From NCBI GenBank assembly GCA_964373695.1, contig CAYJVT010000001.1, positions 22,328 to 86,327 of the forward strand: a stretch of 64,000 nucleotides of DNA, written 5' to 3'. The notes under the pieces are model-generated. The model was not told the origin of the DNA. It ran no database searches and was given only the letters and a program-made list of their open reading frames with translations. The stretch is from an uncultured archaeon. Its GTDB lineage: Archaea; Aenigmatarchaeota; Aenigmatarchaeia; GW2011-AR5. A program made the position numbers and the translations under genes. Every line of letters starts with the position of its first letter. Within the stretch, counting starts at the first letter, position 1. This document shows positions 10,312-61,497 of this stretch, piece after piece.

Positions 10312-10314
10312 CAC

Positions 10315-33594: not shown

Positions 33595-33616
33595 ATTTTT
33601 TGCGTATCTTTGGAAT

Positions 33617-34246
33617 ATGATACTGCTCCCGAAGCTCAGGCTCGGCGTAACCGCATTTTCGGGCCCAGAATCCGTGGAAGCGATAAGTAAAATGGGGGTC
33701 AGGCATGTGAACATCCCTTCATCTCTCCTGAATGCTGACAACGCCGGTGCCTACATGGAGAACGCCAAAAAATTCAATATCACAATCGAGGCCGTGTGCA
33801 CCGGCGGCTCGGATAATTTCGCGGAGCTGGCGGCAGCCGTGGGAGCGAAGGCACTGTGCATAGCCTTGGATGACATAAGCCTTATCGGAGCCGTTTCGGA
33901 CAGCGCCAAGAGCACAGGACTTAATTATCTGATATGGGAACCTGCAGGCATCGGTATGGAAGACTGTAAAAGGACTCTGACAGACATCAGCAAGACGTCT
34001 GCCATTCCTGTGAAGCTCGCACTCTCTCTCGAGTCGGATAACATCTACGAGATGTCGAGAATTATAGGAAAGGACGCCATGATAATCATAAGGAGGAAGG
34101 AAGACATTGCAATACTCGGGAAGGTTATCGACAGCCTGAGAACGGGTGGCTCTAGGGAAAACATGATAATGCTGGATATGCCTTCGGCAGCCATTGACAG
34201 CCTCGAGACCTCGGTGGACTACTGTAGGAGTTTCGTCAGAGAGTGA
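33617..34246 (+). CDS. Hypothetical protein, possibly TIM-barrel-like
   Basis: ~210 aa from MILLPKLRLGVTAFSG.... No confident family. Its position in the operon supports a real gene. Confidence 0.35.
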   Translation: MILLPKLRLGVTAFSGPESVEAISKMGVRHVNIPSSLLNADNAGAYMENAKKFNITIEAVCTGGSDNFAELAAAVGAKALCIALDDISLIGAVSDSAKSTGLNYLIWEPAGIGMEDCKRTLTDISKTSAIPVKLALSLESDNIYEMSRIIGKDAMIIIRRKEDIAILGKVIDSLRTGGSRENMIMLDMPSAAIDSLETSVDYCRSFVRE

Positions 34247-34251
34247 AATTA

Positions 34252-36910: not shown

Positions 36911-38518
36911 ATGAAGGTTATCATACCGATGGCCGGGAATAACGAGGACTTCCGCCGGGAAGGGATGGATGAAGTAAAGCACATGATGAATATAGACGGC
37001 AAGAGCATGATAGAGCACGTATGCGGCATGTTCCCCCAGAACAGCAGCTTCATATTTCTCTGCAGGAAGGCGCATCTGGATAATTCAGGCCTTATGGAAC
37101 ATCTCCAGAAAATAGTCAAGAATTCCACGATAATAGTAGTTGAAAACGACACGAGAGGGCCGGTGGAAACTGTGTTGCTCGCTGACGGGGCTGTGAGAGA
37201 TGATGAGGAAGTAATAATAGCCCATTCCGACGCCATATCGGACTGGGATTTCAGCGTGTTCCTGAAGAAAATAAAGGACAGAAAAGCCGATGGCGCCCTT
37301 TCAACGTTCATAGGCTTTCATCCGACACACCTCAACGGGGTGCGTTATGCCTCCATATCAACAGACGACAACGACTATGTAGTCAGTATAAAGGAAAAGG
37401 AGCTCATAACAAAGGGCTACATTGAAAACTACACTTCCGCCGGTGTGTATTATTTTTCAAGGTGGGATGTGTTCAAGAAATACGCTGAAAGGATGATAGA
37501 AAACGTCGAACACGAGATGTTTTACATAAGCCTGGTATACAACGAGATGTTGAAAGACGGCCTGAAGGTCGTGCCTTTCGAGGCTGAGGGCCTAATTTAC
37601 TGGGGTGAACCGCAGAATCTGAAGGAGTATGTGTTCTGGTCGGAATATTTTGCGTCCCTGACCAAGCAGGGCAAGGAAAGGGGAATGTACGATATGGTAA
37701 ATCTCATACCTTCCGCAGGCCGCGGAAAGAGATTTGCAGACGCTGGGTACAAGATTCCCAAGCCGTTCATAGATGTTCTTGGCGAGCATATGATAGTGAA
37801 ATGTGCAAAATCGCTTCCAAAAACGGCCAGATACGTCTTCGTCTGCCTAAGGCAGCATGTAGAAAATTTCGGGCTCGACGAAATTCTGAAAAAAAACTTC
37901 CCGGAATGCGATATTGTCATAGTAAATGACTATACAGACGGCATGGCACGCTCGTGTCTCATGGCCAAGCATCTTCTGGACAAGGACAAGCCTGTTTTCG
38001 TCTCGTCATGCGACTACAGCTTCGTCTACAACGACGAAAATCTCAGGAGGCTGATTGAGGACGAGGACCCTGATGCAGTAGTGTGGACATTCAGGGGGTA
38101 TCCGGATGCCAGAATAGCACCAATGGCATACGCCTACATGGTAGTGGAGAACGGCCGTGTCAAAAGAATCTCGGAAAAGGTTCCGATAAGCGACGAGCCG
38201 CACAAGGATCCAATAGTGCAGGGCATTTTCTACTTCAAGACAGCCAAGCTTCTGATAGATTGCATAAACGAGATGATAGAAAAAAACATAACCGTCAACG
38301 GCGAGTTCTACGTCGGAACCGCCATAAACCATCTCATAGAGAAGGGTATGAAAGTCATGCCATTTGAGCTGGATAAATACATATGCTGGGGAACGCCGCA
38401 CGACCTGCTTGTGTTCCAGTTCTGGGAAAACTACTTCATAAATAATCCGAATCACCCATATAAAAGGATTGTACCTAAATCGGAATTAAGCCAACTGAAA
38501 TTGGCTAAGATGTGGTAA
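36911..38518 (+). CDS. Internally duplicated (tandem) WGTP-family nucleotidyltransferase; N-terminal copy has a degenerate G-loop, C-terminal copy canonical
   Basis: Domain 1: MKVIIPMAGNNEDFRREGMDEVKHMMNIDGKSMI...LIYWGEPQNLKEYVFW. Domain 2: LIPSAGRGKRFADAGYKIPKPFIDVLGEHMI...YICWGTPHDLLVFQFW. Confidence 0.75.
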   Translation: MKVIIPMAGNNEDFRREGMDEVKHMMNIDGKSMIEHVCGMFPQNSSFIFLCRKAHLDNSGLMEHLQKIVKNSTIIVVENDTRGPVETVLLADGAVRDDEEVIIAHSDAISDWDFSVFLKKIKDRKADGALSTFIGFHPTHLNGVRYASISTDDNDYVVSIKEKELITKGYIENYTSAGVYYFSRWDVFKKYAERMIENVEHEMFYISLVYNEMLKDGLKVVPFEAEGLIYWGEPQNLKEYVFWSEYFASLTKQGKERGMYDMVNLIPSAGRGKRFADAGYKIPKPFIDVLGEHMIVKCAKSLPKTARYVFVCLRQHVENFGLDEILKKNFPECDIVIVNDYTDGMARSCLMAKHLLDKDKPVFVSSCDYSFVYNDENLRRLIEDEDPDAVVWTFRGYPDARIAPMAYAYMVVENGRVKRISEKVPISDEPHKDPIVQGIFYFKTAKLLIDCINEMIEKNITVNGEFYVGTAINHLIEKGMKVMPFELDKYICWGTPHDLLVFQFWENYFINNPNHPYKRIVPKSELSQLKLAKMW

Positions 38519-38520
38519 AA

Positions 38521-39555
38521 ATGAGCTCGATGGATGCTGTCGTTGTTGAGGGGATAGGGAATATAGAATGCAAGAAAATACCTTTTCCTGAATGCGGCGA
38601 CAACGACGTCATCATACTTACCGAAAGGTCCGGGATATGCAGCACCGACGTCATAAGGTCGATGAAAACCGGATTCTACCGCTACCCAATCGTGCCAGGC
38701 CATGAATTCTGCGGGGTTGTGGTCAAGAAAGGGAAGAACGTCGCCGGCGTTGATATAGAGGATAACGTGGTCGTGTACCCCCTCATACCGTGCAAGAAAT
38801 GCGTTCCGTGCATGGCAGGACACCACAACCTGTGCGACACGTACGATTTTCTGGGCTCGAGATCCAACGGAGGGCACGCCGAATACGTCAAGTGTCCCTC
38901 AGAAAACCTGCTGAAAATACCGAAAAACATAAGCTTCGATGAAGCCTGTATGGCGGAGCCGTCGTCTGTCGGTCTTCATGCCAGCCGAGTTTCCGGAAAG
39001 GCTGTGAATGTGGTCGTAATGGGCCTTGGCCCAATAGGCTTCTTTACGGCCCAATGGGCAAAGATTCTGGGAGCGAACCATATTTTTGGTGTGGACAGAC
39101 ACGACCAGAGATTCAAAATCTCCAGAAAGGTCGGCATCCACGAATTCATAGACTCCAGGGACCAGGAAATTACAAAGGCAATAAAGGAGCTTACGGACGG
39201 TCAGGGAGCCGACGTGATATTTGAGTGCTCGGGCTCCATAGACCTTCAGAGGGAAGCTATCTCATCGGCCGCGAAGCGTGGCAGGATTATTCTCCTTGGA
39301 AACCCGACTAACGACCTTGTTTTGAACAAGGAAACTTATTCGATGGTGCTCAGAAGGGAACTGAGTATAATAGGCTCATGGAGCTCGCTTATCTCGACCG
39401 ACGAATGGAGCCAGTCCCTGGAGCACATGTCGAGCAAAAAGATAAACGCAATGCCGGTGATAACCCATAATTTTCACGTGAGCGAGGCCAAGAACGTCAT
39501 AGAGGACATGCATCACAAGAGATTCGAGTTCTCCAAAGTGGTCTTCCGGATGTAG
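38521..39555 (+). CDS. Zinc-dependent alcohol/polyol(-phosphate) dehydrogenase (MDR family), second copy
   Basis: ...GICSTDV...GHEFCG..., CKKCVPCMAGHHNLC (structural Zn) and GLGPIG. The ATG at 38521 directly follows the upstream stop. Confidence 0.85.
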   Translation: MSSMDAVVVEGIGNIECKKIPFPECGDNDVIILTERSGICSTDVIRSMKTGFYRYPIVPGHEFCGVVVKKGKNVAGVDIEDNVVVYPLIPCKKCVPCMAGHHNLCDTYDFLGSRSNGGHAEYVKCPSENLLKIPKNISFDEACMAEPSSVGLHASRVSGKAVNVVVMGLGPIGFFTAQWAKILGANHIFGVDRHDQRFKISRKVGIHEFIDSRDQEITKAIKELTDGQGADVIFECSGSIDLQREAISSAAKRGRIILLGNPTNDLVLNKETYSMVLRRELSIIGSWSSLISTDEWSQSLEHMSSKKINAMPVITHNFHVSEAKNVIEDMHHKRFEFSKVVFRM

Positions 39556-39593: not shown

Positions 39594-40286
39594 ATGACAA
39601 AGCTTTCCGTTATACTCCCGTGCTACAACGAGGGGGAGAACATACCGCTCATTCTTGAGAGATATTCGCAGGTTGCGAAGAGGGTGCCTATGGAGCTCGT
39701 CTTGGTCGATAACGGCTCTACGGACGGGACTGAAGGCATCCTCAGAAAGGAGCTCCCGAAATACAAGTTCGCAAGGTCTGTGAAAGTCGGAAAGAACATA
39801 GGGTACGGCTTCGGCATCCTTTCTGGCCTCAGAACCGCCAAGAGCGGGTATCTGGCGTTCTCCCATGCCGACATGCAGTGCGACCCCAGAGACATAGAGA
39901 AGGGGTGGAAAATTCTCATATCATCCGTCTCCCCGGAAAGGACGCTGGTAAAGGGCAACCGCGAGGGGAGGGCGAACTTCTTCACGTCATGCTTCCATGC
40001 GGCATCCTCTGCCGTCCTTATGAAGCATTTCGACGACGTCAACGGCCAGCCGAAGATATTCCATAAAGACCTTCTGGGAATGATGAAGAAGCCGCCGAAC
40101 GGGTTTTCTCTGGACCTTTACGTTCAGTACACCGCCCTCAGGAACGGATTTGCCGTCAGAAGCTTCCCGGTGAAATTCAAGAGAAGGCTTCATGGGAAGT
40201 CCAGCTGGGCGACCGGCATACGCTCAAGAGCGAAGACGATAGCCGGAATGTCCGCATATATTCTGAAGCTCAGGATGGGGCTTTAG
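39594..40286 (+). CDS. GT2 glycosyltransferase (dolichyl-phosphate sugar synthase-like)
   Basis: MTKLSVILPCYNEGENI...VDNGSTDGT...SHADMQCDP (DxD-equivalent). Confidence 0.8.
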   Translation: MTKLSVILPCYNEGENIPLILERYSQVAKRVPMELVLVDNGSTDGTEGILRKELPKYKFARSVKVGKNIGYGFGILSGLRTAKSGYLAFSHADMQCDPRDIEKGWKILISSVSPERTLVKGNREGRANFFTSCFHAASSAVLMKHFDDVNGQPKIFHKDLLGMMKKPPNGFSLDLYVQYTALRNGFAVRSFPVKFKRRLHGKSSWATGIRSRAKTIAGMSAYILKLRMGL

Positions 40287-40317
40287 CATTTAAGAATCGT
40301 GCTAAAATAGTGTCTTT

Positions 40318-41028
40318 ATGTCCAGACCAGAGCTTTCCGTGGTTGTCCCGTTTTACAACGAGCAGGACAACGCAAAAACAGTTCTATCCGGCCTCGGCAA
40401 CGCCCTGGATGATATAAATTACGAAATCATAGCCGTCAACAACGGCTCTACAGACAATACGGCGTCCGTGCTCCGTGAGGTGAAAAACAGCAGAATAATA
40501 ATCGTGACAGTGGAAAAAAACATCGGATTCGGCTACGGCATCAGAAAGGGCCTGGAATCGGCGAAAGGCAAATATCTCGGCTACATGTGGGGGGACAACC
40601 AGATTTCCGCCGGCGTCGTCGCGGAGATTTACAGGAAGCTCGCCAAAGAGGGGCTGGATTTGTGCAAGATAAGGCGCGCCGCAAGGGATTACGGATTTTT
40701 CAGGAAGCTTGAATCCGCCGCATACAACAGGATATTTCTGGCGCTGTTTTTTGGGAAGATAAGCAACGACATAAACGGAAGCCCCAAGATAATGAAGAGG
40801 GCGCTTTACGAAAGGCTGGGCCTGGAGTCAAACGACTGGTTCATCGACACGGAACTCATGGTGAAAGTGAAGGTCCTGGGCGGCAGGGTTGGCGAAGTGA
40901 AGGCTGCCTACAACAAGAGAAGCAAGGGAAAGTCCAAAGTAAAGTTCTACGTCATGATGGAATTCCTCTCAAATATCCTCAGATTCAGGTTCAGCGGGCT
41001 CAAGAAATTTAAAGACTCCGTAGACTAG
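40318..41028 (+). CDS. GT2 glycosyltransferase, paralog of 39594..40286
   Basis: MSRPELSVVVPFYNEQDN...VNNGSTDNT...WGDNQ. Confidence 0.75.
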   Translation: MSRPELSVVVPFYNEQDNAKTVLSGLGNALDDINYEIIAVNNGSTDNTASVLREVKNSRIIIVTVEKNIGFGYGIRKGLESAKGKYLGYMWGDNQISAGVVAEIYRKLAKEGLDLCKIRRAARDYGFFRKLESAAYNRIFLALFFGKISNDINGSPKIMKRALYERLGLESNDWFIDTELMVKVKVLGGRVGEVKAAYNKRSKGKSKVKFYVMMEFLSNILRFRFSGLKKFKDSVD

Positions 41029-41034
41029 TCAAGA

Positions 41035-41970
41035 ATGTCATCGCTCGGCGGCGCCAGTGTTCTTGTGACAGGTGGCAACGGCTTCATAGGCTCGCACCTC
41101 GTGGAAAGACTTGCCGATGAAGGCGCTGCAGTTCACGTTCTTTCCAGAAGCGACGTTAATATCAGGGGTATGGGAAATGTCATATTCCATAAAGCCGACA
41201 TCAGGGACTACGGGGCCGTCAAAAACGTCGTAAACGAAGCGGAGCCAAAAAAAATCTTCCATCTTGCCGCAATGGTCAACCTCAGCAGGGAAATGAAGGA
41301 CCTGAAGCCTGTGATGGAAACGAAAATAAACGGGACGCTGAACCTGCTGAATGCTCTTGACGGCATCGATTATGACTGCTTTATCAACACGGGAACGTGT
41401 GAGGAATACGGCTCAAACCACCCGCCTTTCAGGGAGGACATGACTCCAAGGCCCATATCCCACTATTCGGCCGCCAATGCGTCCGTGACTTCCATATGCA
41501 GGATGCTGTACGAAACAAACGCTCTGCCGATTCTTACTCTGCGGCAGTTCACATGCTACGGCCCGGGCCAGAAGCCCAGCATGCTGATACCCTACGTCAT
41601 AAGCTCCGCGATGACGGGGAATGACATCAGGCTGACGAAGGGGGAGCAGAAAAGGGATTTCAACTACGTGGATGACGCCGTCGAATCATTCATGAAAGCT
41701 TCGGCAGAGAAGCGAGCCATAGGCGAGGTGATAAACATAGGGACCGGCGAGAGCCGTAGAATAACGGATGTCGTGGCGTCAATACTTTCCATTACAAATA
41801 GTTCCGCGAAGCCGCTGTTCGGGGCCATTCCATACAGGAAACCTGAGATATGGGAAATAAGGGCCGACATCTCAAAGGCGGAGCGCATCCTGGGATGGAG
41901 ACCTGTAACCGGCATGGAAGACGGGTTGAAAAGGACTGTGGAATGGTACAGAAAATCTATTTCCTCGTGA
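41035..41970 (+). CDS. NAD-dependent nucleotide-sugar epimerase/dehydratase (SDR)
   Basis: VLVTGGNGFIGSHLVERL... with a YSAANAS region (YxxxN/K). Confidence 0.8.
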   Translation: MSSLGGASVLVTGGNGFIGSHLVERLADEGAAVHVLSRSDVNIRGMGNVIFHKADIRDYGAVKNVVNEAEPKKIFHLAAMVNLSREMKDLKPVMETKINGTLNLLNALDGIDYDCFINTGTCEEYGSNHPPFREDMTPRPISHYSAANASVTSICRMLYETNALPILTLRQFTCYGPGQKPSMLIPYVISSAMTGNDIRLTKGEQKRDFNYVDDAVESFMKASAEKRAIGEVINIGTGESRRITDVVASILSITNSSAKPLFGAIPYRKPEIWEIRADISKAERILGWRPVTGMEDGLKRTVEWYRKSISS

Positions 41971-43429
41971 GTATATCAAAAGGCCCGACCGAAGCGCTTT
42001 TTCGGTATTCGTTCTCCAGATATTCGTATGTTATGGGATTGAAATATCTCGACTGCTGTGTGTTGTCCACCACGACTGTCTTTACGCCGCTTGAGCGTAA
42101 TATCTCCACAGTCCTTGCCTGCTCAGTGTCGTTCACGTGCTCTTTGTAAGGATAAAGGTAATACATGCCGGGCGGCGGGTCCCTTTCCGACAGATGGTAT
42201 ATGGTGGGGTTGTATCCGAACACGTAGAGCATCTCCTCCTCTTCCATGGTATTTTTCAGGTAAGACGACACGTCCTCCATATGTGTGTAGTAATCCGACG
42301 ATGCGCTATGCAGCCTGTAGACGCTGTAGGAATTGAGACCAAGTGAAAGTGCCAGGAGCACGGCTATCGGGAAGACGATGAGTATTTTGGCGTATAAGCT
42401 ATCAATTTTAGCCGACATCGTCCTCTGAATCATTATCGCAGACAAGACGGAAAGTGGTATTACCATAAGGCTCATGTACTTGAGAACCGCCACGAACGGA
42501 TACGACGTTACAGCAAGCAGGATGGCGAAAAACATGTCGCTGCCCATGTCCCTTTTCCTGTCCAAAAGGAAAGCTATGAAAAAGGCCGTGGCAAGGAAAA
42601 GTACCGGCGACATGACGGAGAGATTATATATGGTCTCCAGTGATGTGAATTTCGACGGGTCGCTCAGCCAGGTATCATCTTTTCTTATGTTCAGTGCCTC
42701 CGCGGTGGTCCAGTTGAGTATCTCGGCGAAGGCTCCTATGAGAATGAAATGAGCTGCAACAATGATGAGCGGTATAAGCAGGGAAGCGACTATAAGCACT
42801 GCCGGCTTTATTTTGGCGGCTATGTTTTTTCTCTCGGCAGCGAAGCATATGAAATAAAATAGAATAAGCATCGCTGCCGTCTGTTTTGAAAGCAGGGCCA
42901 GCCCGGCAAGCATTCCAGAGGCGGCTATGTATTTTGCTCTTTTCTCTTTGGTAAAAAAGAACAAGGATGCGGCGGAAAACAGTATCATAAGTCTGTCTCC
43001 ATTGAGAGCATAACCAAAAAACGAGGGCATCGTGAATATGAAGAGGAATATTGATGCGGCCGCCAGAGCCGTTCTCTTGCTGTACATCCTTGTAACGATC
43101 GTGTATATCATCAAGGAGGCGGCGGCATTCATGGAGATTGCCAGCATCCTTATGAGCTGCAGAATCTGGCCTGAATACGCCAGAACGGAAAAGATGTAGT
43201 AATTGAGGGGGGGCTTTACGTCCGTCGAATAGTCCTTGTAGGGGGCGTAACCTTCTAGCATTTTTTCTGAAGTGAAAATATAATTGCTTTCGTCCGGAGT
43301 AAACCCTGTATTCAGGTATATCGAGCTGTTTACAAGGATGTATGCAACAACGACAATCCAAATCTCCTTGCCTCTCAGGTCCATTCTAAAAACTTCATTT
43401 TTAATGCTTAAAAATCGCCATCGTTTCAT
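41957..43429 (-). CDS. GT-C membrane glycosyltransferase, ArnT/PMT (GT39/GT83)-like
   Basis: 490 aa. The N-terminal TM helix is followed by ...FTPDESNYIFTSEKMLEGYAPYKDYSTDVKPPLNYYI... (GT-C first-loop D/E motif), then ~11 TM helices and a C-terminal soluble tail. Confidence 0.6.
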   Translation of the reverse strand: MKRWRFLSIKNEVFRMDLRGKEIWIVVVAYILVNSSIYLNTGFTPDESNYIFTSEKMLEGYAPYKDYSTDVKPPLNYYIFSVLAYSGQILQLIRMLAISMNAAASLMIYTIVTRMYSKRTALAAASIFLFIFTMPSFFGYALNGDRLMILFSAASLFFFTKEKRAKYIAASGMLAGLALLSKQTAAMLILFYFICFAAERKNIAAKIKPAVLIVASLLIPLIIVAAHFILIGAFAEILNWTTAEALNIRKDDTWLSDPSKFTSLETIYNLSVMSPVLFLATAFFIAFLLDRKRDMGSDMFFAILLAVTSYPFVAVLKYMSLMVIPLSVLSAIMIQRTMSAKIDSLYAKILIVFPIAVLLALSLGLNSYSVYRLHSASSDYYTHMEDVSSYLKNTMEEEEMLYVFGYNPTIYHLSERDPPPGMYYLYPYKEHVNDTEQARTVEILRSSGVKTVVVDNTQQSRYFNPITYEYLENEYRKSASVGPFDILTRK

Positions 43430-43487: not shown

Positions 43488-44258
43488 ATGGACGTTGTGA
43501 TACTCTGCGGCGGCCGCGGAACACGGCTTGCTGAAAAGACTTCTGTGATGCCGAAGCCGCTCGTTCCGATAGGGGAGAAGCCGATAATCTGGCATATAAT
43601 GAAGCTGTATTTCCACTACGGCTACAAGAGGTTTGTTCTTCCTCTAGGATATTTGGGACATGAGATAAAGAGGTTCTTCGTCGAATATCCGTGGATAAGC
43701 GGGGACTTCGAGCTTAATATGCATTCCGTGTCGGTGCCGAAGCCGAGGGAAGACTGGTCTGTGGCGCTTGTCGACACCGGTATCGACTCTAAGACGCAGA
43801 AAAGGCTGCATCTGGTGAAGGAGCACATAAAAACCGACAGGTTCATGCTCACGTACGGGGACGGCGTCGCCGACATAGACATCGGAGACCTTGTAAGAAG
43901 GCATGAATACCTGAGGAAAACATATGGCGTCCTGGGCACGGTAACTCTCCATACTCCGAAATCAAAGTTCGGCGTGGTCGACATAGAAAAAGACCTTGCC
44001 ACGGCATTCAGGGAAAAGCCTGATGCCGACAAGTTCGTGAATATAGGATTCATGGTCCTTGAAAAAGGCGTCTTCGACTACATGGACGGCTCGGATGTGA
44101 TGCTTGAGACTTCTCTTCTGCCGAAGCTTGCAGCCGAAGGCAAGATAGGATTCTATCACCATCGAAACTTCTGGGGGTGCATGGACACCTATGGCGACTA
44201 TATGCACCTTAATGATATATGGAAAAATGAAAGGCCGTGGAAGGTATGGCAGGACTAG
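43488..44258 (+). CDS. rfbF: Glucose-1-phosphate cytidylyltransferase
   Basis: MDVVILCGGRGTRLAEKTSVMPKPLVPIGEKPIIWHIMKLY... matches the RfbF/DdhA N-terminus. ~256 aa. Confidence 0.85.
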   Translation: MDVVILCGGRGTRLAEKTSVMPKPLVPIGEKPIIWHIMKLYFHYGYKRFVLPLGYLGHEIKRFFVEYPWISGDFELNMHSVSVPKPREDWSVALVDTGIDSKTQKRLHLVKEHIKTDRFMLTYGDGVADIDIGDLVRRHEYLRKTYGVLGTVTLHTPKSKFGVVDIEKDLATAFREKPDADKFVNIGFMVLEKGVFDYMDGSDVMLETSLLPKLAAEGKIGFYHHRNFWGCMDTYGDYMHLNDIWKNERPWKVWQD

Positions 44259-45229
44259 ATTTCTGGAAGGGTAAAAAAGTGCTTATAACGGGAGCCACCG
44301 GGTTCATAGGCTCTCACGTAGCTTCGGCTCTGTGCAGAACAGCTGATGTCACGGTGCTGGAAAGGGATAGTACAAAGGATTCTTTTCTCACTCTGTCGGG
44401 AAACATGAAACACGTTAACATAGCGAGGGGAGAGCTTGAAAGCATGGATGCTGTGATGCGCGTCCTTGCTGAGTATGAGATAGACACAGTCTTCCATATA
44501 GGCGCCCAGCCGATAGTGGAAATATCCAAAGTAGAGCCCAGGAAGACATTCGAATCAAACATAGAAGGGACATGGAACGTACTGGAAGCCTGCCGCCTCG
44601 TTTCGTATGAAAGCAGGAAGCTACAGAGAATAATCGTTGCGTCAAGCGACAAGTCCTACGGCAGCCAGGCGCCGCCTTACACTGAGGACATGCCCCTCGG
44701 AGGCGAGTCTCCATACGACGTGTCGAAGGCGTGCGCAGACCTGATATCACAGTCGTACCGAAAAAACTATGCTCTGCCGATATGCATCTCCCGCCTGGGA
44801 AACGTTTTCGGCCCGGGCGACACGAACTTCAACCGTATCGTGCCTGGAACTATAAAGTCCATAATCGAAGGCGGCGACGTGAAAATAAGAAGCGACGGCT
44901 CTCTGGTCAGGGAATATTTCTATGTGAAGGACGCCGTCTCGGCCTATCTCACATTGGCGGAAAACATGCACAGGAAGGAAGTTCTTGGCGAAGCCTTCAA
45001 TTTCGGCAGCGGCGAAAAAATGTCTGTCCTGGACGTGGTGAAAAGGATTTCGGACTTCATGGGATACAAAGGGCAGCCCAAAATACTCGATTCGGCAAGG
45101 AACGAGATACAGACGCAGTTCCTGTCGACGGGAAAGGCAAGGCGTATCCTTGGATGGTCGCCTTCGTTCTCATTTTCCGGCGCTTTGCCGGAAACCGTGG
45201 GATGGTACAAAGCATTCCTGGGTGGATGA
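44246..45229 (+). CDS. rfbG: CDP-glucose 4,6-dehydratase
   Basis: ...LDFWKGKKVLITGATGFIGSHV... (RfbG/DdhB N-terminal signature) with a YDVSK catalytic pair. Confidence 0.85.
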   Translation: MAGLDFWKGKKVLITGATGFIGSHVASALCRTADVTVLERDSTKDSFLTLSGNMKHVNIARGELESMDAVMRVLAEYEIDTVFHIGAQPIVEISKVEPRKTFESNIEGTWNVLEACRLVSYESRKLQRIIVASSDKSYGSQAPPYTEDMPLGGESPYDVSKACADLISQSYRKNYALPICISRLGNVFGPGDTNFNRIVPGTIKSIIEGGDVKIRSDGSLVREYFYVKDAVSAYLTLAENMHRKEVLGEAFNFGSGEKMSVLDVVKRISDFMGYKGQPKILDSARNEIQTQFLSTGKARRILGWSPSFSFSGALPETVGWYKAFLGG

Positions 45230-45230
45230 A

Positions 45231-46529
45231 ATGGAGAAAGAACTTAGGGAGGAAATAAGGAAGAAGGTTGCAGAATACTACAGGGAAGTCCTGTCGGAAA
45301 GGCAGAGGCACAAGATACCGGCATCGGGAAAGGTCTTTGACGAGAACGAAATGATGAATGCCGTTGACGCTGTACTGGACGGTGTTTGGACCCACGGAAG
45401 GTTCGCTCTTGCATTTGAAAATGCTCTCTCCTCATTTCTAAGCGTAAGGCACTGCGTCATAACCAATTCGGGGTCGTCAGCTAATCTTCTCGCGGCCTCT
45501 GTACTGTTCTCCGCTGAGGTGGAAAACAGCATCAGGAAGGGGGATGAGATAATCACGGCCGCAGCCGGTTTCCCGACGACGACAAACCCTATAATACAGA
45601 ATGGCGGTGTCCCAGTGTTTGTCGACATAAAAGAGGGCACATACAACATAGACGAAAGTCTTGTGGAAGATGCCATAACAGACAAAACAAAAGCCATAAT
45701 GACGGCCCATACTCTGGGAAATCCTTTCAACTTGGATAAAATTGTGTCAATATGCAAAAAGCACGGCCTGTTCCTTATAGAGGACTGCTGCGACGCCCTC
45801 GGCTCAAAATACAGGGATAAATACGTATCAACATTCGGCGATTTGGCGACTTTCAGCTTTTATCCGGCCCATCATATAACAATGGGGGAGGGAGGGGCGG
45901 TTGTCACGAACTCCGACATACTTGAAAAGTGCGCCGAATCCATAAGGGACTGGGGAAGGGACTGCTGGTGCATGCCTGGCGTGGACAACACATGCGGAAA
46001 GCGCTTCTCCTGGAAGCTCGGCGGGCTCCCGGAAGGATACGACCACAAATATACGTATTCCAGGCTCGGATACAACCTTAAGGCAACGGACATGCAGGCT
46101 GCCATAGGCCTTGCCCAGCTCGGCAAGCTCCCTTCGTTCATCGAGGCCAGGAAAAGGAACTTTGATGCTCTCAAGTCGGCGCTTTCCGGGTTCGACTGCC
46201 TTGCATTCGCTGAAAGCGAGCCTGGCGCGGAGCCGTCATGGTTCGGGTTCATCATAAGACTGAAAGGGGGGTGCGGCTTCAGCAGGGAGCATCTGACAGG
46301 CTTCCTGGAAAAAAACGGGATAGTGACGCGGCTTGTATTCGCCGGAAACCTGACAAAACAGCCCTATTTATTCAACGGAAATGTTGATTACAGAATCTCA
46401 GGAAATCTGGAAAAGTCGGACAACGCCATGAAGAACGCATTCTGGATAGGCGTCTGGCCCGGTATTACCGAACAGGACATAAGCCATATATACGAGACGT
46501 TTGGAAAATTTATTGGTGGTTCAAGATGA
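45231..46529 (+). CDS. ddhC: CDP-6-deoxy-D-xylo-4-hexulose-3-dehydrase-like (E1), DegT/DnrJ/EryC1 PMP-dependent family
   Basis: MEKELREEIRKKVAEYY... with ...VITNSGSSANLLA... and ...SFYPAHHITMGEGGAV... (His replacing the Lys, as in E1 dehydrases). ~433 aa. It directly follows rfbG. Confidence 0.75.
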   Translation: MEKELREEIRKKVAEYYREVLSERQRHKIPASGKVFDENEMMNAVDAVLDGVWTHGRFALAFENALSSFLSVRHCVITNSGSSANLLAASVLFSAEVENSIRKGDEIITAAAGFPTTTNPIIQNGGVPVFVDIKEGTYNIDESLVEDAITDKTKAIMTAHTLGNPFNLDKIVSICKKHGLFLIEDCCDALGSKYRDKYVSTFGDLATFSFYPAHHITMGEGGAVVTNSDILEKCAESIRDWGRDCWCMPGVDNTCGKRFSWKLGGLPEGYDHKYTYSRLGYNLKATDMQAAIGLAQLGKLPSFIEARKRNFDALKSALSGFDCLAFAESEPGAEPSWFGFIIRLKGGCGFSREHLTGFLEKNGIVTRLVFAGNLTKQPYLFNGNVDYRISGNLEKSDNAMKNAFWIGVWPGITEQDISHIYETFGKFIGGSR

Positions 46530-47473
46530 AGCCTCTCGTGAGCATATGCATACCCAATTACAACGGAGAAAGGTATATAAGGCACGCCATAGAGAGCGCC
46601 CTGGCGCAGACATACCGCAGGACTGAAATCATCGTGACGGACAACGCATCCACGGACGGCTCGTGGGATATAATAAAATCCTTCAGGAGGATAAAAAAAT
46701 TCAGGCATAAGTCCAACATGGGATATAACAGGAACCTCAATACATGCGTAGAGCTTGCAAAAGGAAAGTATGTGAAGATTCTACATTCCGATGACATGCT
46801 TGAAAAGGATGCCGTGAAAACGCAGGTGGAAGCGATGGAAAGCGCGCCGGCAGCCGGCTTCATATACAGCCCGGTGAAGCTTATTGACGAGAAGGGGGAT
46901 TTCATTGAAAATTTCTCCGCCGGAGACGCCGCCCTCATAATACCGGGGAAGCAGAAACTGGCCGAGCTACTCAATGGCAACCATATAATGTTTCCTTCTG
47001 TCATGATAAGGGCCGAATGCTTCAGGAAGGTCGGTTTGTTCGACGGTGAAATACCGTACTGCAATGACTGGGACATGTGGATGAGGATATCCATGAAATA
47101 TGACGTCGCGTACAGCAATTGTGTTTCCGCATCATACAGGGTATACCGCCATAGCGGAGGCACCGTCAGGTATGAGGTTCATGACATATCGGGCTTCCAG
47201 ATGTACATGTGCCTGACAAAAATCCTCTCCATGATAAGCGACGAATCTATCCTGAAAAACGGGAGAAGATACTATAAGAATCTTGCGATGGAGCAGATAT
47301 CCAGGGGCCTTTCCCTGATAAAGAAGGGAAGAAAATCCCACGGCAGGAGATACGTCCTGGCGGCTTCTTCCATGTATGACGGCTTCCTGTTCAGGCTGTC
47401 CGTCTATGCCGTATATCTTCTGACATATGCCGGCATGAGCGGAATTATTCTCAGGCTGGGAAAAATCAAGTAG
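46526..47473 (+). CDS. GT2 glycosyltransferase
   Basis: MKPLVSICIPNYNGERYI...TDNASTDGS...HSDD (DxD). ATGA overlap with ddhC. Confidence 0.8.
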   Translation: MKPLVSICIPNYNGERYIRHAIESALAQTYRRTEIIVTDNASTDGSWDIIKSFRRIKKFRHKSNMGYNRNLNTCVELAKGKYVKILHSDDMLEKDAVKTQVEAMESAPAAGFIYSPVKLIDEKGDFIENFSAGDAALIIPGKQKLAELLNGNHIMFPSVMIRAECFRKVGLFDGEIPYCNDWDMWMRISMKYDVAYSNCVSASYRVYRHSGGTVRYEVHDISGFQMYMCLTKILSMISDESILKNGRRYYKNLAMEQISRGLSLIKKGRKSHGRRYVLAASSMYDGFLFRLSVYAVYLLTYAGMSGIILRLGKIK

Positions 47474-47549
47474 GACATTATTCGAAACTCCTGTATATAT
47501 TCATAAATTTATTTGGGCATGTTATGTTACCAAAAACTTTGGTGTAAAT

Positions 47550-48437
47550 ATGCGTATACTTGTGACTGGCGGAAGCGGATTCGTAGGCAGGAATGCGGCG
47601 GAACATTTCGGGAAAAAACACGAAGTCCTGGCGCCAACGCACAGGGAACTGGACCTGCTTGAGGAAAACAAGGTAAGGGATTTCTTCAGGCAGAATGAAG
47701 TGGACGTTGTAGTCCACGCTGCAATAAAGCCAGGAAACAGGAATACAAAAGAGACTTCCAACCGATTTTACAGCAACGTCAGGATGTTCTTCAACATAAT
47801 GCGCAATTCCGACAGGTTTGGTAAGATGATATTCACGAGTTCTGGCGCCATTTATGACATGAGGTATCCGATACAGAAAGTGACGGAGGATTTCGCCGGC
47901 GAACGCGTCCCGGCAGACGACCTGGGCTTTTCCAAGTATATAATATCAAAACACATCGACCACTCGCCAAACGTGACGGAGCTCAGGGTATTCGGGGTTT
48001 TCGGGAAATACGAGGATTATGAAATAAGGTTTATTTCAAATGCAATTTGCAGGGCGCTTCTAGGTCTGCCGATAGCAATAAAACAGAACAGGGTTTTCAG
48101 CTATGTTTACATTGATGACCTGATGAAAGTAATGGAGCACTTCATCAAAAAGGATGGTGAATACAGGTCGTACAACGTCACGGACGGGCTCCCTATGGAG
48201 CTTTTGACCATCGCAAAGAAGGTATCTGAAATAGCCGGAAAGGACGCGGGTATCAAAGTGAGGTATGAAGGCATGGAAGACGAGTACAGCGGAGACAATT
48301 CACGCTTGAAGAAAGAGACAGGCATCGGATTCACGCCAATAGGCGATGCAATAAAGAACCTTGTTGCATGGTATGAAGAAAATATAAGCCAAATCAACAA
48401 AGACCTGTTGGTTCTGGATGAAAAGAGTAGGTGGTAA
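47550..48437 (+). CDS. NAD(P)-dependent SDR reductase/epimerase (candidate CDP-4-keto-3,6-dideoxyhexose reductase, RfbJ/RfbS/YerF-like)
   Basis: MRILVTGGSGFVGRNAAEHF.... 295 aa, the size of abequose/paratose synthases. Confidence 0.65.
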   Translation: MRILVTGGSGFVGRNAAEHFGKKHEVLAPTHRELDLLEENKVRDFFRQNEVDVVVHAAIKPGNRNTKETSNRFYSNVRMFFNIMRNSDRFGKMIFTSSGAIYDMRYPIQKVTEDFAGERVPADDLGFSKYIISKHIDHSPNVTELRVFGVFGKYEDYEIRFISNAICRALLGLPIAIKQNRVFSYVYIDDLMKVMEHFIKKDGEYRSYNVTDGLPMELLTIAKKVSEIAGKDAGIKVRYEGMEDEYSGDNSRLKKETGIGFTPIGDAIKNLVAWYEENISQINKDLLVLDEKSRW

Positions 48438-48442
48438 TAAAT

Positions 48443-50257
48443 ATGATGATACTATCCGACTACATTATGAAGAGGCTTGTTGAATACGGGGTCAGGCATA
48501 TTTTCACTATCACTGGCGGCGGCGCCATGTACCTTAACGATGCCATGCAGAAATGCAAGGAAATAGAATACATATGTAACCACCACGAGCAAGCGTGCGC
48601 CATGGCCGCGGAAGGCTACTCGAGGGCGTGCGAAAAGATGGCCGTCGTCCAGGTGACGACAGGCCCGGGGGGCACCAATACGGTTACCGGGGTCTTGGGC
48701 CAGTGGACGGACTCCGTGCCAGTATTGTATATCTCCGGCCAGGTGAAGCTGGAGACTTCTGTTGAATCGTGCCTAGATATAGGACTGAGGCAGCTGGGCG
48801 ACCAGGAAGCCAGGATTGTGAAAATAGTGAAGCCAATAACCAAATTCGCTGCTGTCGTAAAGAACCCGGAAGATATCAGGAAACTCCTTGAGAAAGCGAT
48901 ATACATCTGCACACATGGCAGGCCTGGACCTGTCTGGCTTGACATACCGACAAATGTGCAGAGCACGCTGATAGACGAAACAAATCTGGAAGGGTATGAC
49001 GAAAAGGAAGATGAGATGAAGTTCAATGGGGACAGTTTGAAGGAAAACGTAAAGAAGGTAGTTGCGCTTATAAAGGCGTCCAAGAGGCCTGTAATCATAG
49101 CGGGCCGCGGAATAAGGATTTCAGGCTCGCGCGACATTTTCCTGGGCATAGCAGAGAGCATGGGGATTCCAGTCCTGTCCACCCACAACGGCTACGACGT
49201 AATCTATACGGACCATCCTCTGTCAGTAGGGAGGATAGGGATATACGGCGACAGGTCTGGCAACTTTGCGCTGCAGAATTCCGATTTATTGATATCAATA
49301 GGCTCGAGAAACAACGTGAAGCAGGTGAGCTACAACTGGAAATGCTTCGCAAGGGAGGCAAAAAAGGTTTTTGTTGACATAGACGAGTCCGAGCTGAAGA
49401 AGCCTACGATAAGCCCCGATATCGCAATACATTCCGACGCCAAGGATTTTCTTCTGGAGCTCAAATCTCAGATGGCGAAGGAAAAAATGCCTTCTTTCTC
49501 TGAATGGCTTAAATGGTGCATCGAAAGGAAAAAGCGGTATCCTGTGGTACTTCCCGAATATAAAAAGCCGGGAAAGTTTGTCAACCCATATTATTTCAAC
49601 CAGAAGGTCACGGAATGCCTGAAAGAAGACGACATCATTGTGACCGGCGTCGGCACGTCATTCTTTGCTGTCTATCAGTCGGCAATAGTGAAGAAAAACC
49701 AGCGGTTTATATGGAACACCGGATGCTCGGCAATGGGGTACGACCTCCCGGCTGCGATAGGCGCGTGCGTCGCAAGCGGAAGAAAGGACATAATATGCCT
49801 CGCGGGCGACGGGAGCATACAACTGAACATCCAGGAGCTTCAAACTATTTCTTATCACAAAATGCCGATAAAGATTTTCGTCTACAACAACAACGGATAC
49901 GTCTCCATGAGGCAGACGCAGGAGAACTTTTTTGACAAAAGGTACATAGGATGCGACAAGAACTCTGGAGTAGGATTCCCGGACATCAGAAAAGTGGCAG
50001 CCGCCTACAACATACAGTCCGAAATAATAGAAAGTCATGAAGACATGGAGAGAAAAATAATGAAAGTTCTGGGGCACAAGGGACCAATTGTATGCGAAGT
50101 CGTGATGGACCCTGACTGCAGGTTCCTGCCGAAGATAACGTCGAGAAAGGTTAACGGCACTTTCGTTTCGAGCCCGCTGGAAGACATGTCCCCATTCCTT
50201 GAGCGCGAGGAACTCAAGGACAACATGATAATACCCATGTGGGAAGAAAGCAAGTAG
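48443..50257 (+). CDS. Thiamine-diphosphate-dependent acetolactate-synthase-like enzyme (YerE-like carboligase candidate)
   Basis: ~604 aa with TPP_N (...GVRHIFTITGGGAMYLNDAM...VQVTTGPGGTNTVTGV...) and a TPP-binding C-domain (...GDGSIQLNIQEL...). Confidence 0.7.
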   Translation: MMILSDYIMKRLVEYGVRHIFTITGGGAMYLNDAMQKCKEIEYICNHHEQACAMAAEGYSRACEKMAVVQVTTGPGGTNTVTGVLGQWTDSVPVLYISGQVKLETSVESCLDIGLRQLGDQEARIVKIVKPITKFAAVVKNPEDIRKLLEKAIYICTHGRPGPVWLDIPTNVQSTLIDETNLEGYDEKEDEMKFNGDSLKENVKKVVALIKASKRPVIIAGRGIRISGSRDIFLGIAESMGIPVLSTHNGYDVIYTDHPLSVGRIGIYGDRSGNFALQNSDLLISIGSRNNVKQVSYNWKCFAREAKKVFVDIDESELKKPTISPDIAIHSDAKDFLLELKSQMAKEKMPSFSEWLKWCIERKKRYPVVLPEYKKPGKFVNPYYFNQKVTECLKEDDIIVTGVGTSFFAVYQSAIVKKNQRFIWNTGCSAMGYDLPAAIGACVASGRKDIICLAGDGSIQLNIQELQTISYHKMPIKIFVYNNNGYVSMRQTQENFFDKRYIGCDKNSGVGFPDIRKVAAAYNIQSEIIESHEDMERKIMKVLGHKGPIVCEVVMDPDCRFLPKITSRKVNGTFVSSPLEDMSPFLEREELKDNMIIPMWEESK

Positions 50258-50306
50258 GACATTCTTCAAAAAATAAAGTCAAGCTTAAATAACTTGCCAA
50301 TTTATT

Positions 50307-50924
50307 ATGAAAATGTTTGATGTATCCGACAGGCTCGTTACGGAAAGAAGGGCGCTTTTCAGCTACAGTCCTGTGCTTTTCAGAACTGGCGAATCTTATG
50401 GCCGTTCGATGGAGCAAGTGCCTGAAGGATTCGCTGCATCCTCATTGCGACATGAAGGGTACATAATACAGCAGATGAGAGAAGATGTCGGGCCCCTTTC
50501 TTACGAGCCGTATTCAGAAGTCTTCGGCATCGGAAGCAGCGAGCGAGCGAGGCTCATGCTATCCACAAGGCTTCGCGTTCCGCACGGCCATGACCCGGAG
50601 AAATACGAAACACGGGGCGGGAGAAGACACTGGAGAAGGATGCTTGTGGAAGGAGACAGCGAGACAGGTGTGATGGTTCCTGAAAGCGGCGTTGTCTATC
50701 GGTTCGACAAAGAGTCGGGACTTCCGGAAGTCACCGGACCGCTTGCAGAAAGTTTGTATCCGTTTTCGGTAAGATTCAATTTCAGGCCGTTGTGGAGTGA
50801 CTCGGTTATTGTAATAAAAGATGCCGGCCCTGACACAGACAAAGGCCTAGTAATAGAAGCGTCCAGAAGCACGCGCTACAGGCATCCGGACCACTCTGTA
50901 AGGCTTGTAAGAGAACTGGCCTAA
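50307..50924 (+). CDS. Hypothetical protein
   Basis: 205-aa ORF and the only long ORF in this interval. No recognisable motif. Confidence 0.35.
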   Translation: MKMFDVSDRLVTERRALFSYSPVLFRTGESYGRSMEQVPEGFAASSLRHEGYIIQQMREDVGPLSYEPYSEVFGIGSSERARLMLSTRLRVPHGHDPEKYETRGGRRHWRRMLVEGDSETGVMVPESGVVYRFDKESGLPEVTGPLAESLYPFSVRFNFRPLWSDSVIVIKDAGPDTDKGLVIEASRSTRYRHPDHSVRLVRELA

Positions 50925-51090
50925 ATCTTTCTGCATTTGGCTTTGTAGAAATGCTCTAAAGTTCAGCTAGAATCGACAAGGATATATAAATTAACGCAAA
51001 ATCCACTCCTACCAAAACCTGTAATAAACAGAGTGATTTATTAACTCCTTAATTTGACAGGAAAGAAATTCAAGGATAATCATAGGGTTT

Positions 51091-51711
51091 CTACAGAGCC
51101 CTGCATTTCACTATGTAGCCTTCACAGAAGAACTCGTTCTTGAATGGCATCTCAAACCTGAAGAACGGTATCATTGGCCTGTGGTAGTGCACCTCTTCTA
51201 TTTCAAACATGCCATGAAGCATCTTCTTCAGGTACCACAGGAAAACAGGCGTAACGTGCACTTTCTTTTCCGGTTCGTCGGCAAAGAAGCCGTGGAAGCC
51301 GCCAGTGAAAAGGAAGTACAGTTTCTGGTACCAGTTGTTCGGGTTCGGGGTTGAGATTATGGCTTGGCCGCCTTTTCTTAGCACCCTATGAAACTCTTTT
51401 ATCGCGGTATATGGGCTGTCAAGGTGCTCCAGATTCTCTATTGAAAATATGAAGTCGAATGAATTGTCATTGAAAGGTATTTTCTCGTTGAGGTCGGCTT
51501 TCTTGAATTCCACTCCATCGGCAAAGAATTTTTCCTTCTCTATATCGACTCCATGGAGGTTCTTGTACCCCATCTTCTGCAGTTCATTGAGAAGCGCCCC
51601 CTCGCCGCAGCCGGCATCGAGTACCGCGGCTTTCTTGGCTATATTATTTCTCAGAAATATCTCCATGACCTTTTCATGAAGTTTCGGCGTGGCAATAGGC
51701 TTCGGTTCCAT
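51091..51711 (-). CDS. Class I SAM-dependent methyltransferase
   Basis: ...AAVLDAGCGEGALLNEL... (motif I) and ...DFIFSIENLEHL... (motif II/post I). Confidence 0.75.
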   Translation of the reverse strand: MEPKPIATPKLHEKVMEIFLRNNIAKKAAVLDAGCGEGALLNELQKMGYKNLHGVDIEKEKFFADGVEFKKADLNEKIPFNDNSFDFIFSIENLEHLDSPYTAIKEFHRVLRKGGQAIISTPNPNNWYQKLYFLFTGGFHGFFADEPEKKVHVTPVFLWYLKKMLHGMFEIEEVHYHRPMIPFFRFEMPFKNEFFCEGYIVKCRAL

Positions 51712-51789
51712 TAATTATCCTCTGATTATAGAAGATTAATCAAACGTTTAAAAAGAATGAATAATAGGGGTTTTACTGGTCGTATTGTC

Positions 51790-52452
51790 TTACTGCAATC
51801 CGTTCACTTCTATCAGGTCTCCAACGCCATCGTATCTGGGACGGGAGCCTACATTGTCAAGCCCTTCAAAATCATGTCGCCAGTCAAAGCTGATGTTGAA
51901 TTTTCCGTGTCCTTTAAGCGGGTATGTGCGCCCTACAAATCTATCATCACTAGAGGCGCTGCTGGGCTGAAAAAAGAATGAAACCTGGCCAGGCGGCACG
52001 CCTTTTTTCTCCAGCCTTCTCATCGCCTCTTCTTTGCTGTCAACTGTCTCGAGCGGTATGAGTGTTTCAAAGGTCTCGCATCCGCGTGTTTCTTTACGGA
52101 ACCATCCGTCTTCTGTGAGCACATACCAGCCGCTCCTCGGCGCCCACGTATCAATGACTGCTTCTCTTTCTGTACCGGTATTGAGAACATACTTCAAATG
52201 AATCCTGCCTCTTCTGTCGGACCCGTTTTTGCGTATTCTTGCCGCATCCATTGTTATCTCAGACCAATATCTCATTTCTCTGCCTCTTTCATCGTCCGTA
52301 CGGCATATGGGATTGTCAAAATTGTTGTGGCTATAGCCTTTCCATAAATTGGCTCCTGAATCCGCCCGCTCAGAAAGTGTTCTGTACGGCAAAGAAAATC
52401 CGTCCACAAAATTTGCAACAGCCAGTCCATTTCCGAGAGAAATATATTGCAT
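51790..52452 (-). CDS. Hypothetical protein
   Basis: 220-aa ORF. The structured repeat element lies just upstream. No family recognised. Confidence 0.4.
   Translation of the reverse strand: MQYISLGNGLAVANFVDGFSLPYRTLSERADSGANLWKGYSHNNFDNPICRTDDERGREMRYWSEITMDAARIRKNGSDRRGRIHLKYVLNTGTEREAVIDTWAPRSGWYVLTEDGWFRKETRGCETFETLIPLETVDSKEEAMRRLEKKGVPPGQVSFFFQPSSASSDDRFVGRTYPLKGHGKFNISFDWRHDFEGLDNVGSRPRYDGVGDLIEVNGLQ

Positions 52453-58538: not shown

Positions 58539-61493
<2,955 letters not shown>

Positions 61494-61497
<4 letters not shown>

Follow-up and report, generated by a model that had tools for sequence, protein, structure and literature searches.

Organization of the six-gene operon

The 64-kb stretch of contig CAYJVT010000001.1 analyzed here comes from an uncultured archaeon and is referred to below as the window; wherever a gene is said to be missing from the window, the statement covers this 64-kb stretch. 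Between positions 43488 and 50257 it carries six consecutive genes on the forward strand, which appear to specify the synthesis and transfer of a cytidine diphosphate (CDP)-activated sugar. Families were assigned with Pfam and NCBIfam models and by comparison with the closest solved structures.

The first gene (43488-44258, 256 aa) encodes an RfbF/DdhA-like glucose-1-phosphate cytidylyltransferase. It is followed by the gene for an RfbG/DdhB-like CDP-glucose 4,6-dehydratase of the extended short-chain dehydrogenase/reductase (SDR) type (44246-45229, 327 aa), and by that for RfbH (DdhC, or E1; 45231-46529, 432 aa), a pyridoxamine 5'-phosphate (PMP)- and [2Fe-2S]-dependent CDP-6-deoxy-L-threo-D-glycero-4-hexulose 3-dehydrase. 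Overlapping rfbH by 4 nt, the fourth gene encodes a GT2 glycosyltransferase (46526-47473, 315 aa; PF00535 match, 105 bits), a candidate for the transfer of the product sugar. The fifth encodes an extended SDR resembling RmlD and GDP-fucose synthase (SDR295; 47550-48437, 295 aa), the proposed reductase of the branch carbonyl in a YerF-like role. Finally, a carboligase of the thiamine diphosphate (ThDP)/flavin adenine dinucleotide (FAD) type, belonging to the JanthE ("YerE-like") clade, closes the run (48443-50257, 604 aa) and is proposed to introduce a branch at C-4. Public assemblies start this gene at 48443, while an open reading frame (ORF) beginning with GTG at 48431 is four codons longer (608 aa). 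Since the six genes are co-directional and separated by successive gaps of -13, 1, -4, 76 and 5 nt, we regard them as an operon. All six ORFs were found on the forward strand with exactly the boundaries given in the preliminary description of this DNA, and both peptide signatures quoted there, LDFWKGKKVLITGATGFIG in RfbG and FYPAHHITMGEGG in RfbH, are present.

RfbF, RfbG and the RfbH dehydrase

Among solved structures, RfbF is closest to the glucose-1-phosphate cytidylyltransferase of S. typhi (1TZF, 196 bits), with the runner-up at 66 bits. RfbG contains the motifs GATGFIG and YDVSK and aligns best with the CDP-glucose 4,6-dehydratase of Y. pseudotuberculosis (1RKX, 136 bits), dTDP-glucose dehydratases scoring only slightly lower (120 bits); on the dTDP-glucose dehydratase model it reaches 156 bits.

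RfbH is assigned with far greater margin, scoring 637 bits on the RfbH equivalog NF011936 against a cutoff of 423, and 488 bits against the structure of the Yersinia E1 (3BCX), with which it has FYPAHHITMGEGG in common. The first residue of its H214-H215 pair aligns with His220 of the Yersinia enzyme, at the position taken by Lys in aminotransferases; the structure of the H220K mutant (3BB8) has K in this column and differs at exactly the first His. In addition, C187, C245, C247 and C255 preserve an intact C-X57-C-X1-C-X7-C spacing, which we take to be the [2Fe-2S] motif of E1. Both E1 and SpnQ hold their [2Fe-2S] cluster with four cysteines, and in both a His replaces the aminotransferase Lys (PMC8987622). 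Motifs and score therefore identify RfbH as an E1-type reductive 3-dehydrase, in keeping with its earlier description as a DdhC/E1 with His in place of the catalytic Lys. An aminotransferase and a ColD-type dehydrase were considered as well and are ruled out by His214, the four cysteines and the equivalog score.

Relationship of the ThDP enzyme to JanthE, YerE and acetohydroxyacid synthases

The ThDP enzyme, a member of the decarboxylase superfamily, comprises the three TPP domains PF02776, PF00205 and PF02775, with the catalytic Glu (E49) in an HHEQ motif and a GDG455-X24-NN signature. We compared it with solved structures including 5AHK, which we take to be PpYerE, a crystallized YerE homologue, and presumably the structure of Hampel et al. 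2018. JanthE (8RPH) aligns over the full length with 426 bits, followed by Escherichia coli acetohydroxyacid synthase (AHAS) I with 258, 5AHK with 252 and plant AHAS with approximately 252 bits. Pairwise identities are 36% to JanthE, 31.5% to 5AHK (PpYerE) and 29.6% to E. coli IlvB. In a neighbor-joining tree the family of the window enzyme and JanthE form sister groups; because a single AHAS served as outgroup, the placement of PpYerE relative to AHAS in this tree is uninformative. A review states that structures of both PpYerE and JanthE exist (PMC12247030).

The alignment places a C-terminal tail of about 40 residues (PK..S..G..VS.PLED.SPF) in the window enzyme and, among the compared proteins, in JanthE only, whose pocket residues F564 and K567 have equivalents in this tail. 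The RFDDR motif of AHAS is replaced by GSRNNVKQ in the window family, GTRLAIPQ in JanthE and GSRMDVRQ in 5AHK, while the QMW motif is lost in the window family (SFF) and in JanthE and kept in 5AHK. An R-(Q/M)-x-G motif and the loop preceding it occur in the window enzyme, JanthE and 5AHK, at a site where IlvB has GTDAFQE. The window enzyme further has the motifs LRQxGxQE and GSR..V(K/R)Q in common with PpYerE. JanthE (from Janthinobacterium sp. HH01; 8RPH, 8RPI and 8RPJ), the closest solved relative, departs from the window enzyme in having an unusual CDG as its ThDP motif and LRMWGVQG in place of the canonical GDG and LRQLGDQE. The biosynthetic AHAS large subunits (IlvB, IlvG and IlvI) have the three-domain ThDP/FAD fold of the window enzyme and roughly 30% of its residues, with the catalytic Glu and the GDG...NN signature conserved. 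An additional loop ahead of the xQE motif and the C-terminal tail set the window enzyme apart from them, as does the absence of a small subunit and of an ilv context.

Both JanthE and YerE are ketone-accepting carboligases, the substrate of YerE being CDP-3,6-dideoxy-4-keto-D-glucose (PMC12247030, PMC12188165, PMC9306805), and the coupling of 2-oxo acids to non-activated ketones by JanthE has been shown experimentally (PMC12188165, PMC12247030). YerE itself dates from 1998, and more than 200 YerE-like clusters have been surveyed in silico (PMC12247030).

Matches to the ThDP family number in the thousands, at 45-63% identity and from many bacterial phyla. For an overview of its gene context, we clustered all ORFs in 80 fetched genome loci with family members, taken from among the matches listed, and defined a full-flank subset of 52 loci in which 6 kb or more of sequence was available on each side. 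RfbF was found at 56 of the 80 loci, RfbG at 55 and RfbH at 48. At least one of rfbF, rfbG and rfbH was present in 46 of the 52 full-flank loci, and all three in 34 of them. In bacteria, the ThDP gene has for company an ArnC/GtrB-like GT2 that ends in a transmembrane tail, at 51 of the 80 loci.

As far as sequence can tell, the window enzyme is clearly not an AHAS and belongs to a large clade that is sister to JanthE. It could still be argued that the gene is a diverged acetolactate/acetohydroxyacid synthase for branched-chain amino acids which lies beside sugar genes by chance, given that AHAS large-subunit models are its best NCBIfam matches and that homologues are publicly annotated as "acetolactate synthase". 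We find this barely credible: the enzyme reaches 393 bits on TIGR00118 against a cutoff of 538 and stays below every NCBIfam AHAS cutoff, it lacks RFDDR and QMW and carries the JanthE-type tail, its family is systematically linked to rfb genes, and family scans of most ORFs found no ilvN, ilvC or ilvD in the window. The term "YerE-like" used in the preliminary description is thus apt in so far as the enzyme groups with JanthE, fails the AHAS cutoff, has lost both AHAS motifs and is linked to rfb genes; it does not extend to a special closeness to PpYerE, to which the enzyme is no more similar than to IlvB.

Proposed pathway

In our preferred reading, to which we assign a probability of roughly 0.6 from sequence and gene context, the operon directs the synthesis of a CDP-activated, C-4-branched 3,6-dideoxyhexose that would be passed to a glycosyltransferase for the surface glycan of a DPANN archaeon of Aenigmarchaeota-like affiliation. 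RfbF would first convert cytidine triphosphate and glucose-1-phosphate to CDP-glucose, a step for which homology is strong, and RfbG would oxidize and dehydrate this to CDP-4-keto-6-deoxyglucose (good homology, below the equivalog cutoff). RfbH would then take off the 3-hydroxyl group by way of a Schiff base with PMP and a 3,4-glucoseen intermediate (very strong homology, intact motifs), two electrons presumably arriving through its [2Fe-2S] cluster from a donor encoded elsewhere; this donor may be an E3 of its own or, as with SpnQ, a general system based on ferredoxin or flavodoxin. The ThDP enzyme, judging by its JanthE/YerE-like clade and the conserved gene context, would decarboxylate an alpha-keto acid and add the acyl anion equivalent to the C-4 ketone, producing a tertiary alcohol. 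The donor would most simply be pyruvate, which would leave a 4-C-acetyl branch. SDR295, placed in the scheme by adjacency only, would reduce the side-chain carbonyl to a 1-hydroxyethyl group and so complete a yersiniose-like sugar, and the embedded GT2 would transfer it.

Several observations weigh against this reading. RfbF matches TIGR02623 over its full length with 248 bits, under the cutoff of 300, and RfbG scores 200 bits on TIGR02622, its best NCBIfam model, under the cutoff of 278. The ThDP enzyme is no nearer to PpYerE (31.5%, 252 bits) than to IlvB (29.6%, 258 bits); as it is equally distant from PpYerE and AHAS, its link to YerE is one of function class and context and not of orthology. 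Its nearest bacterial relatives (loci L004-L008, L011, L013 and L024) sit in clusters with aldolase or NeuB genes, and the physiological substrates of JanthE are not known (PMC12188165). SDR295 has no characterized close relative and no close solved structure (best match 45 bits), and it could reduce C-4 instead. Likewise, the 4-keto intermediate could be diverted to an unbranched dideoxyhexose by SDR311, a further extended SDR encoded upstream of rfbF (41035-41970, forward strand, 311 aa). Finally, Pfam scans of most ORFs in the window gave no Fer2 or FNR-type domain, and hence no E3-like gene.

The absence of E3 (ddhD) had been pointed out before, and it was borne out by Pfam, tblastn and motif scans alike: the FNR-like family of some bacterial loci has no tblastn match in the window, and a motif scan for E3/FNR revealed no ferredoxin, FNR or flavodoxin gene there. 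In the same kind of scan, just 5 of the 48 loci with rfbH had an FNR-like ORF no further than 10 kb away and the other 43 had none, so that an unlinked reductase is the norm in bacterial clusters. SpnQ, an Fe-S homologue of E1, is served by general reductase pairs with either ferredoxin or flavodoxin (PMC8987622). If no competent reductase were available, C-3 deoxygenation would not take place and the ThDP enzyme would branch CDP-4-keto-6-deoxyglucose, giving a 6-deoxy branched sugar. Besides the missing E3, such a product would be consistent with the bacterial loci L006, L007, L008, L021, L041, L047 and L059, where rfbF, rfbG and the ThDP gene occur but rfbH is missing from the surrounding 10 kb, which suggests that the 6-deoxy ketone may be a substrate for the family. 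We nevertheless consider a 6-deoxy product quite improbable, as the window rfbH is intact with all catalytic and Fe-S residues, is translationally coupled and is maintained at 65-91% identity in relatives, while unlinked reductases are normal and SpnQ manages with general systems. Since E1-type dehydrases are usually encoded without an E3, one may ask what supplies their electrons in organisms whose redox metabolism is minimal.

Within the C-4-branched reading, a C2 branch takes a share of roughly two-thirds, the branch length being inferred only from the absence of donor-supply genes. Many related clusters do have such genes, with either an HpcH/HpaI aldolase or a NeuB in 46 of the 52 full-flank loci and never both together. 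A module built around the HpcH/HpaI-type aldolase, often with a 224-aa SDR (SDR224) and a dehydroquinate synthase (DHQS)-like protein, occurs at 41 of the bacterial loci L004-L083, and one built around a NeuB-type synthase, often with a HAD phosphatase, at 28. The two look like alternative routes to long 2-oxo-acid donors, and this pattern parallels the aldolase-fed, long-branch logic of erwiniose (PMC9306805). Homologues of the aldolase, NeuB, DHQS-like and SDR224 families are found nowhere in the window, which makes pyruvate as donor and a C2, yersiniose-like branch the simplest assumption. The same minimal architecture, a minority type, recurs at L046, L079 and L082.

The same chemistry could be run with another donor, such as 2-oxobutyrate, hydroxypyruvate or a longer 2-oxo acid made elsewhere, and would then yield an erwiniose- or caryophyllose-like branch of three or more carbons. 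JanthE takes donors of three to six carbons, ErwE does not use pyruvate at all (PMC12247030, PMC9306805), and the prevalence of aldolase and NeuB modules in related loci, including the clusters of the nearest bacterial relatives, points the same way. Against this stand the lack of any homologue of these modules in the window and the existence of bacterial minimal clusters without them, and we regard a longer branch as doubtful.

The role of SDR295 bears on whether a branch is formed at all. The protein matches PF01370 and PF04321 and retains the motifs GGSGFVG and Y130-IIS-K134 intact. Its family is present at 32 of the 80 ThDP loci; of the 31 with a called ThDP ORF, 17 have it immediately upstream in the same orientation, and an alternative 358-aa SDR (SDR358) takes the position directly upstream of the ThDP gene at 12 further loci. 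The known synthases of CDP-abequose and CDP-paratose also belong to the short extended SDRs and are similar in size to SDR295 and SDR311. Either of these two could act as a C-4 ketoreductase, with an unbranched CDP-3,6-dideoxyhexose of the abequose, paratose or tyvelose kind as product and a ThDP enzyme that has nothing to do with the sugar. The best models for SDR311 are LegB, dTDP-glucose dehydratase and GalE, all matched below cutoff; it may be a 4-ketoreductase or epimerase acting on an unbranched sugar, its role being uncertain. Aenigmarchaeota relatives that lack this ThDP enzyme keep SDR311 together with the rfbF-G-H-GT2 core, which presumably gives them a product without it. These relatives carry another ThDP enzyme, a split transketolase, and an SDR in the same slot, though, and the ThDP family is tied to rfbF, rfbG and rfbH across many phyla. 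The SDR295 family moreover tracks the ThDP gene and not rfbH, being present at L006, L007 and L008 with no rfbH within 10 kb. An unbranched product is, in our judgment, unlikely.

Archaeal origin and relatives of the cluster

The branched-sugar reading concerns an archaeon, and the archaeal source claimed for this DNA is well supported by its housekeeping genes, syntenic relatives and composition. At the contig start, seryl-tRNA synthetase (SerRS) has its closest named relatives in Aenigmarchaeota (90, 79 and 78% identity), and tyrosyl-tRNA synthetase is of the archaeal type (PRK08560, 395 bits vs 95 for the bacterial model). The contig with the 90% SerRS relative is from Aenigmarchaeota and bears CDC48-intein and RadA-like genes. 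Tetranucleotide frequencies of the operon correlate with those of the rest of the window at 0.79-0.84 and with those of that Aenigmarchaeota contig at 0.79, as opposed to 0.29-0.53 for bacterial homologue loci.

Two database labels required attention. The 22-kb contig L003 (GCA_016187225.1, JACPKC010000009.1), on which the whole cluster recurs at 90% identity, bears the label "Candidatus Berkelbacteria". We reject this label, since its tetranucleotide correlation with the Aenigmarchaeota housekeeping contig is 0.91 and it was therefore probably mis-binned. The only locus labelled archaeal in the genome scan, among the matches listed, is L030 (CAZXUC010000031.1, "uncultured Halobacteriales archaeon", 62.6% GC). 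Its predicted proteins have pI values of 6.6-9.9, which are not acidic in the manner of halophiles; we consider the label doubtful and did not count the locus as archaeal.

RfbH homologues form a series of 91, 80, 76, 73, 65 and 62% identity that includes named Aenigmarchaeota metagenome-assembled genomes (MAGs), with further homologues in MAGs of Micrarchaeia, Nanoarchaeota, Woesearchaeota and Methanobacteriota. A 3,6-dideoxy and possibly branched sugar had been called remarkable for an archaeon. As RfbH is already auto-annotated in several DPANN MAGs, the pathway is less singular in archaea than assumed. A limited literature search found no report of a 3,6-dideoxyhexose or ThDP-branched sugar in Archaea, which is absence of evidence only.

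The Aenigmarchaeota locus L086 (GCA_016187365.1) is syntenic with the window, with SDR311 at 67% identity directly preceding rfbF, RfbF at 72%, RfbG at 75%, RfbH at 76% and GT2 at 62%; the frame resumes beyond a variable stretch with two GT4 genes (63 and 56%) and an SDR (61%). The rfbF homologue of L086 (L086:1317-2077) is read as two ORFs of 72 and 174 aa, owing either to a frameshift or pseudogene or to a fault in the assembly. The variable stretch of the window (47550-52452) consists of SDR295, the ThDP enzyme and the hypothetical gene hyp205, then, on the opposite strand, a methyltransferase and hyp220. The corresponding slot of L086 (5295-9561) is occupied instead by a split transketolase of 269 and 305 aa, together with an SDR of 306 aa and a B12-radical SAM enzyme. 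At L087, RfbH is 65% identical, the GT2 adjoining rfbH 46%, and a split transketolase lies about 7 kb from rfbH. A role of split-gene transketolases in the branching of keto sugars has been proposed for Streptomyces only, and none of these enzymes has been characterized (PMC12247030).

A Micrarchaeia cluster on a 1.3-Mb contig (L089:1775-11314) encodes a ThDP enzyme of 44% identity, RfbF, RfbG, an SDR296 of the SDR295 family (44%) and RfbH (59%). It carries the same gene set, and the whole system is thus present in at least two DPANN lineages. The Micrarchaeia cluster also includes an HpcH/HpaI-like aldolase, a HAD phosphatase and an LdpA_C iron-sulfur protein. The last of these might be the electron donor for E1 there; as a general substitute for E3 it was discarded, there being no homologue in the window or the bacterial loci.

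The rfbF-G-H-GT2 core is old in this archaeal lineage. The SDR and ThDP pair has its closest relatives in bacteria (60-63% identity) and resembles an exchangeable cassette. That the L086 slot is filled with a different gene set than that of the window suggests exchangeable ThDP branching cassettes behind the core. We tentatively propose, as a possibility short of even odds, that Aenigmarchaeota have a vertically inherited core for CDP-4-keto-3,6-dideoxyhexose and a downstream slot for interchangeable ThDP branching cassettes. If each cassette puts a branch on one common keto sugar, the products would be the first C-branched sugars of Archaea, the split transketolases would be the first candidates of their kind for sugar branching outside Streptomyces, and the whole would represent a cassette-style diversification of surface sugars in episymbiotic archaea.

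Comparison with known systems

The operon follows the same gene logic as the yersiniose A pathway of Yersinia pseudotuberculosis O:6, which comprises DdhA, DdhB, DdhC (E1), DdhD (E3), YerE and YerF; in both, the carboligase is accompanied by a neighboring NAD(P)H reductase. Like that pathway, the window has no donor-supply genes, consistent with a pyruvate donor (PMC9306805). It differs in lacking an E3, in having a GT2 inserted between rfbH and the SDR gene, and in its host, an archaeon without lipopolysaccharide. In erwiniose (ErwE, ErwF, ErwI and ErwJ) and caryophyllose-type clusters, a ThDP enzyme and a reductase likewise act on CDP-4-keto-3,6-dideoxyglucose (PMC9306805). Most bacterial homologues of the window ThDP enzyme reside in such extended clusters, whereas the window has no aldolase, NeuB or DHQS-like module. 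With SpnQ, the window RfbH has in common that an Fe-S/PMP 3-dehydrase is encoded without a dedicated E3 (PMC8987622); SpnQ acts on a dTDP-2,6-dideoxy sugar, and RfbH is much closer to the CDP-specific E1.

Systems of this kind are known, and homologous clusters are very common in bacteria; in the literature searched, bacterial glycans are the only reported source of the C-branched 3,6-dideoxy sugars (yersiniose, erwiniose, caryophyllose). The novelty lies in a well-anchored DPANN archaeal example, in its minimal architecture and in the apparent exchange of its cassette with a transketolase module. DPANN archaea live attached to hosts, and to our knowledge their surface chemistry is essentially unknown. 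The operon offers a testable prediction of an unusual surface sugar in this group. In addition, a member of the JanthE-like family that occurs without a donor module is of interest for the biocatalysis of chiral tertiary alcohols.

Surrounding glycan-biosynthesis island

Divergent from rfbF, the reverse strand encodes a membrane glycosyltransferase of the GT-C type (PMT_2; 41957-43429, PF13231 match), a 34% homologue of which lies near the rfbFGH operon of L087. Together with two small Dpm1-like GT2 proteins (39594-41028), it may form a transferase system dependent on lipid-phosphate sugars. On either side of the cassette lie hyp205 (50307-50924, 205 aa) and, on the opposite strand, hyp220 (51790-52452, 220 aa). 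The two have no Pfam or NCBIfam match and no similarity to each other, and they are conserved only in the 90% relative L003 (72 and 40% identity, respectively).

From position 6197 to 64000, after the tRNA synthetase genes, nearly all of the window is one glycan-biosynthesis island. Genes of heptose type include a SIS isomerase (6197-6748), two nucleotidyltransferases (8789-10314), an HddA-like kinase (10386-11402) and an epimerase (11759-12676). These are joined by a flippase (14721-16220), a carbamoyltransferase (16281-18038), two B12-radical SAM enzymes (22341-25636) and a UDP-glucose dehydrogenase (60241-61518), as well as several GT2, GT4 and SDR genes. An unusual run at 28692-35151 begins with an 826-aa fusion of a GtrA-like membrane domain and a PRK/uridine-kinase domain and continues with a class II aldolase, a MobA-like nucleotidyltransferase, a HAD phosphatase, an unknown ORF and a xylose-isomerase-like TIM barrel; it may constitute a further pathway to an activated sugar or alditol. 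Finally, a 535-aa protein with two nucleotidyltransferase domains, one of them faintly IspD-like, is followed by a zinc alcohol dehydrogenase (36911-39555), a pair that resembles the TarI/TarJ type of CDP-alditol synthesis.

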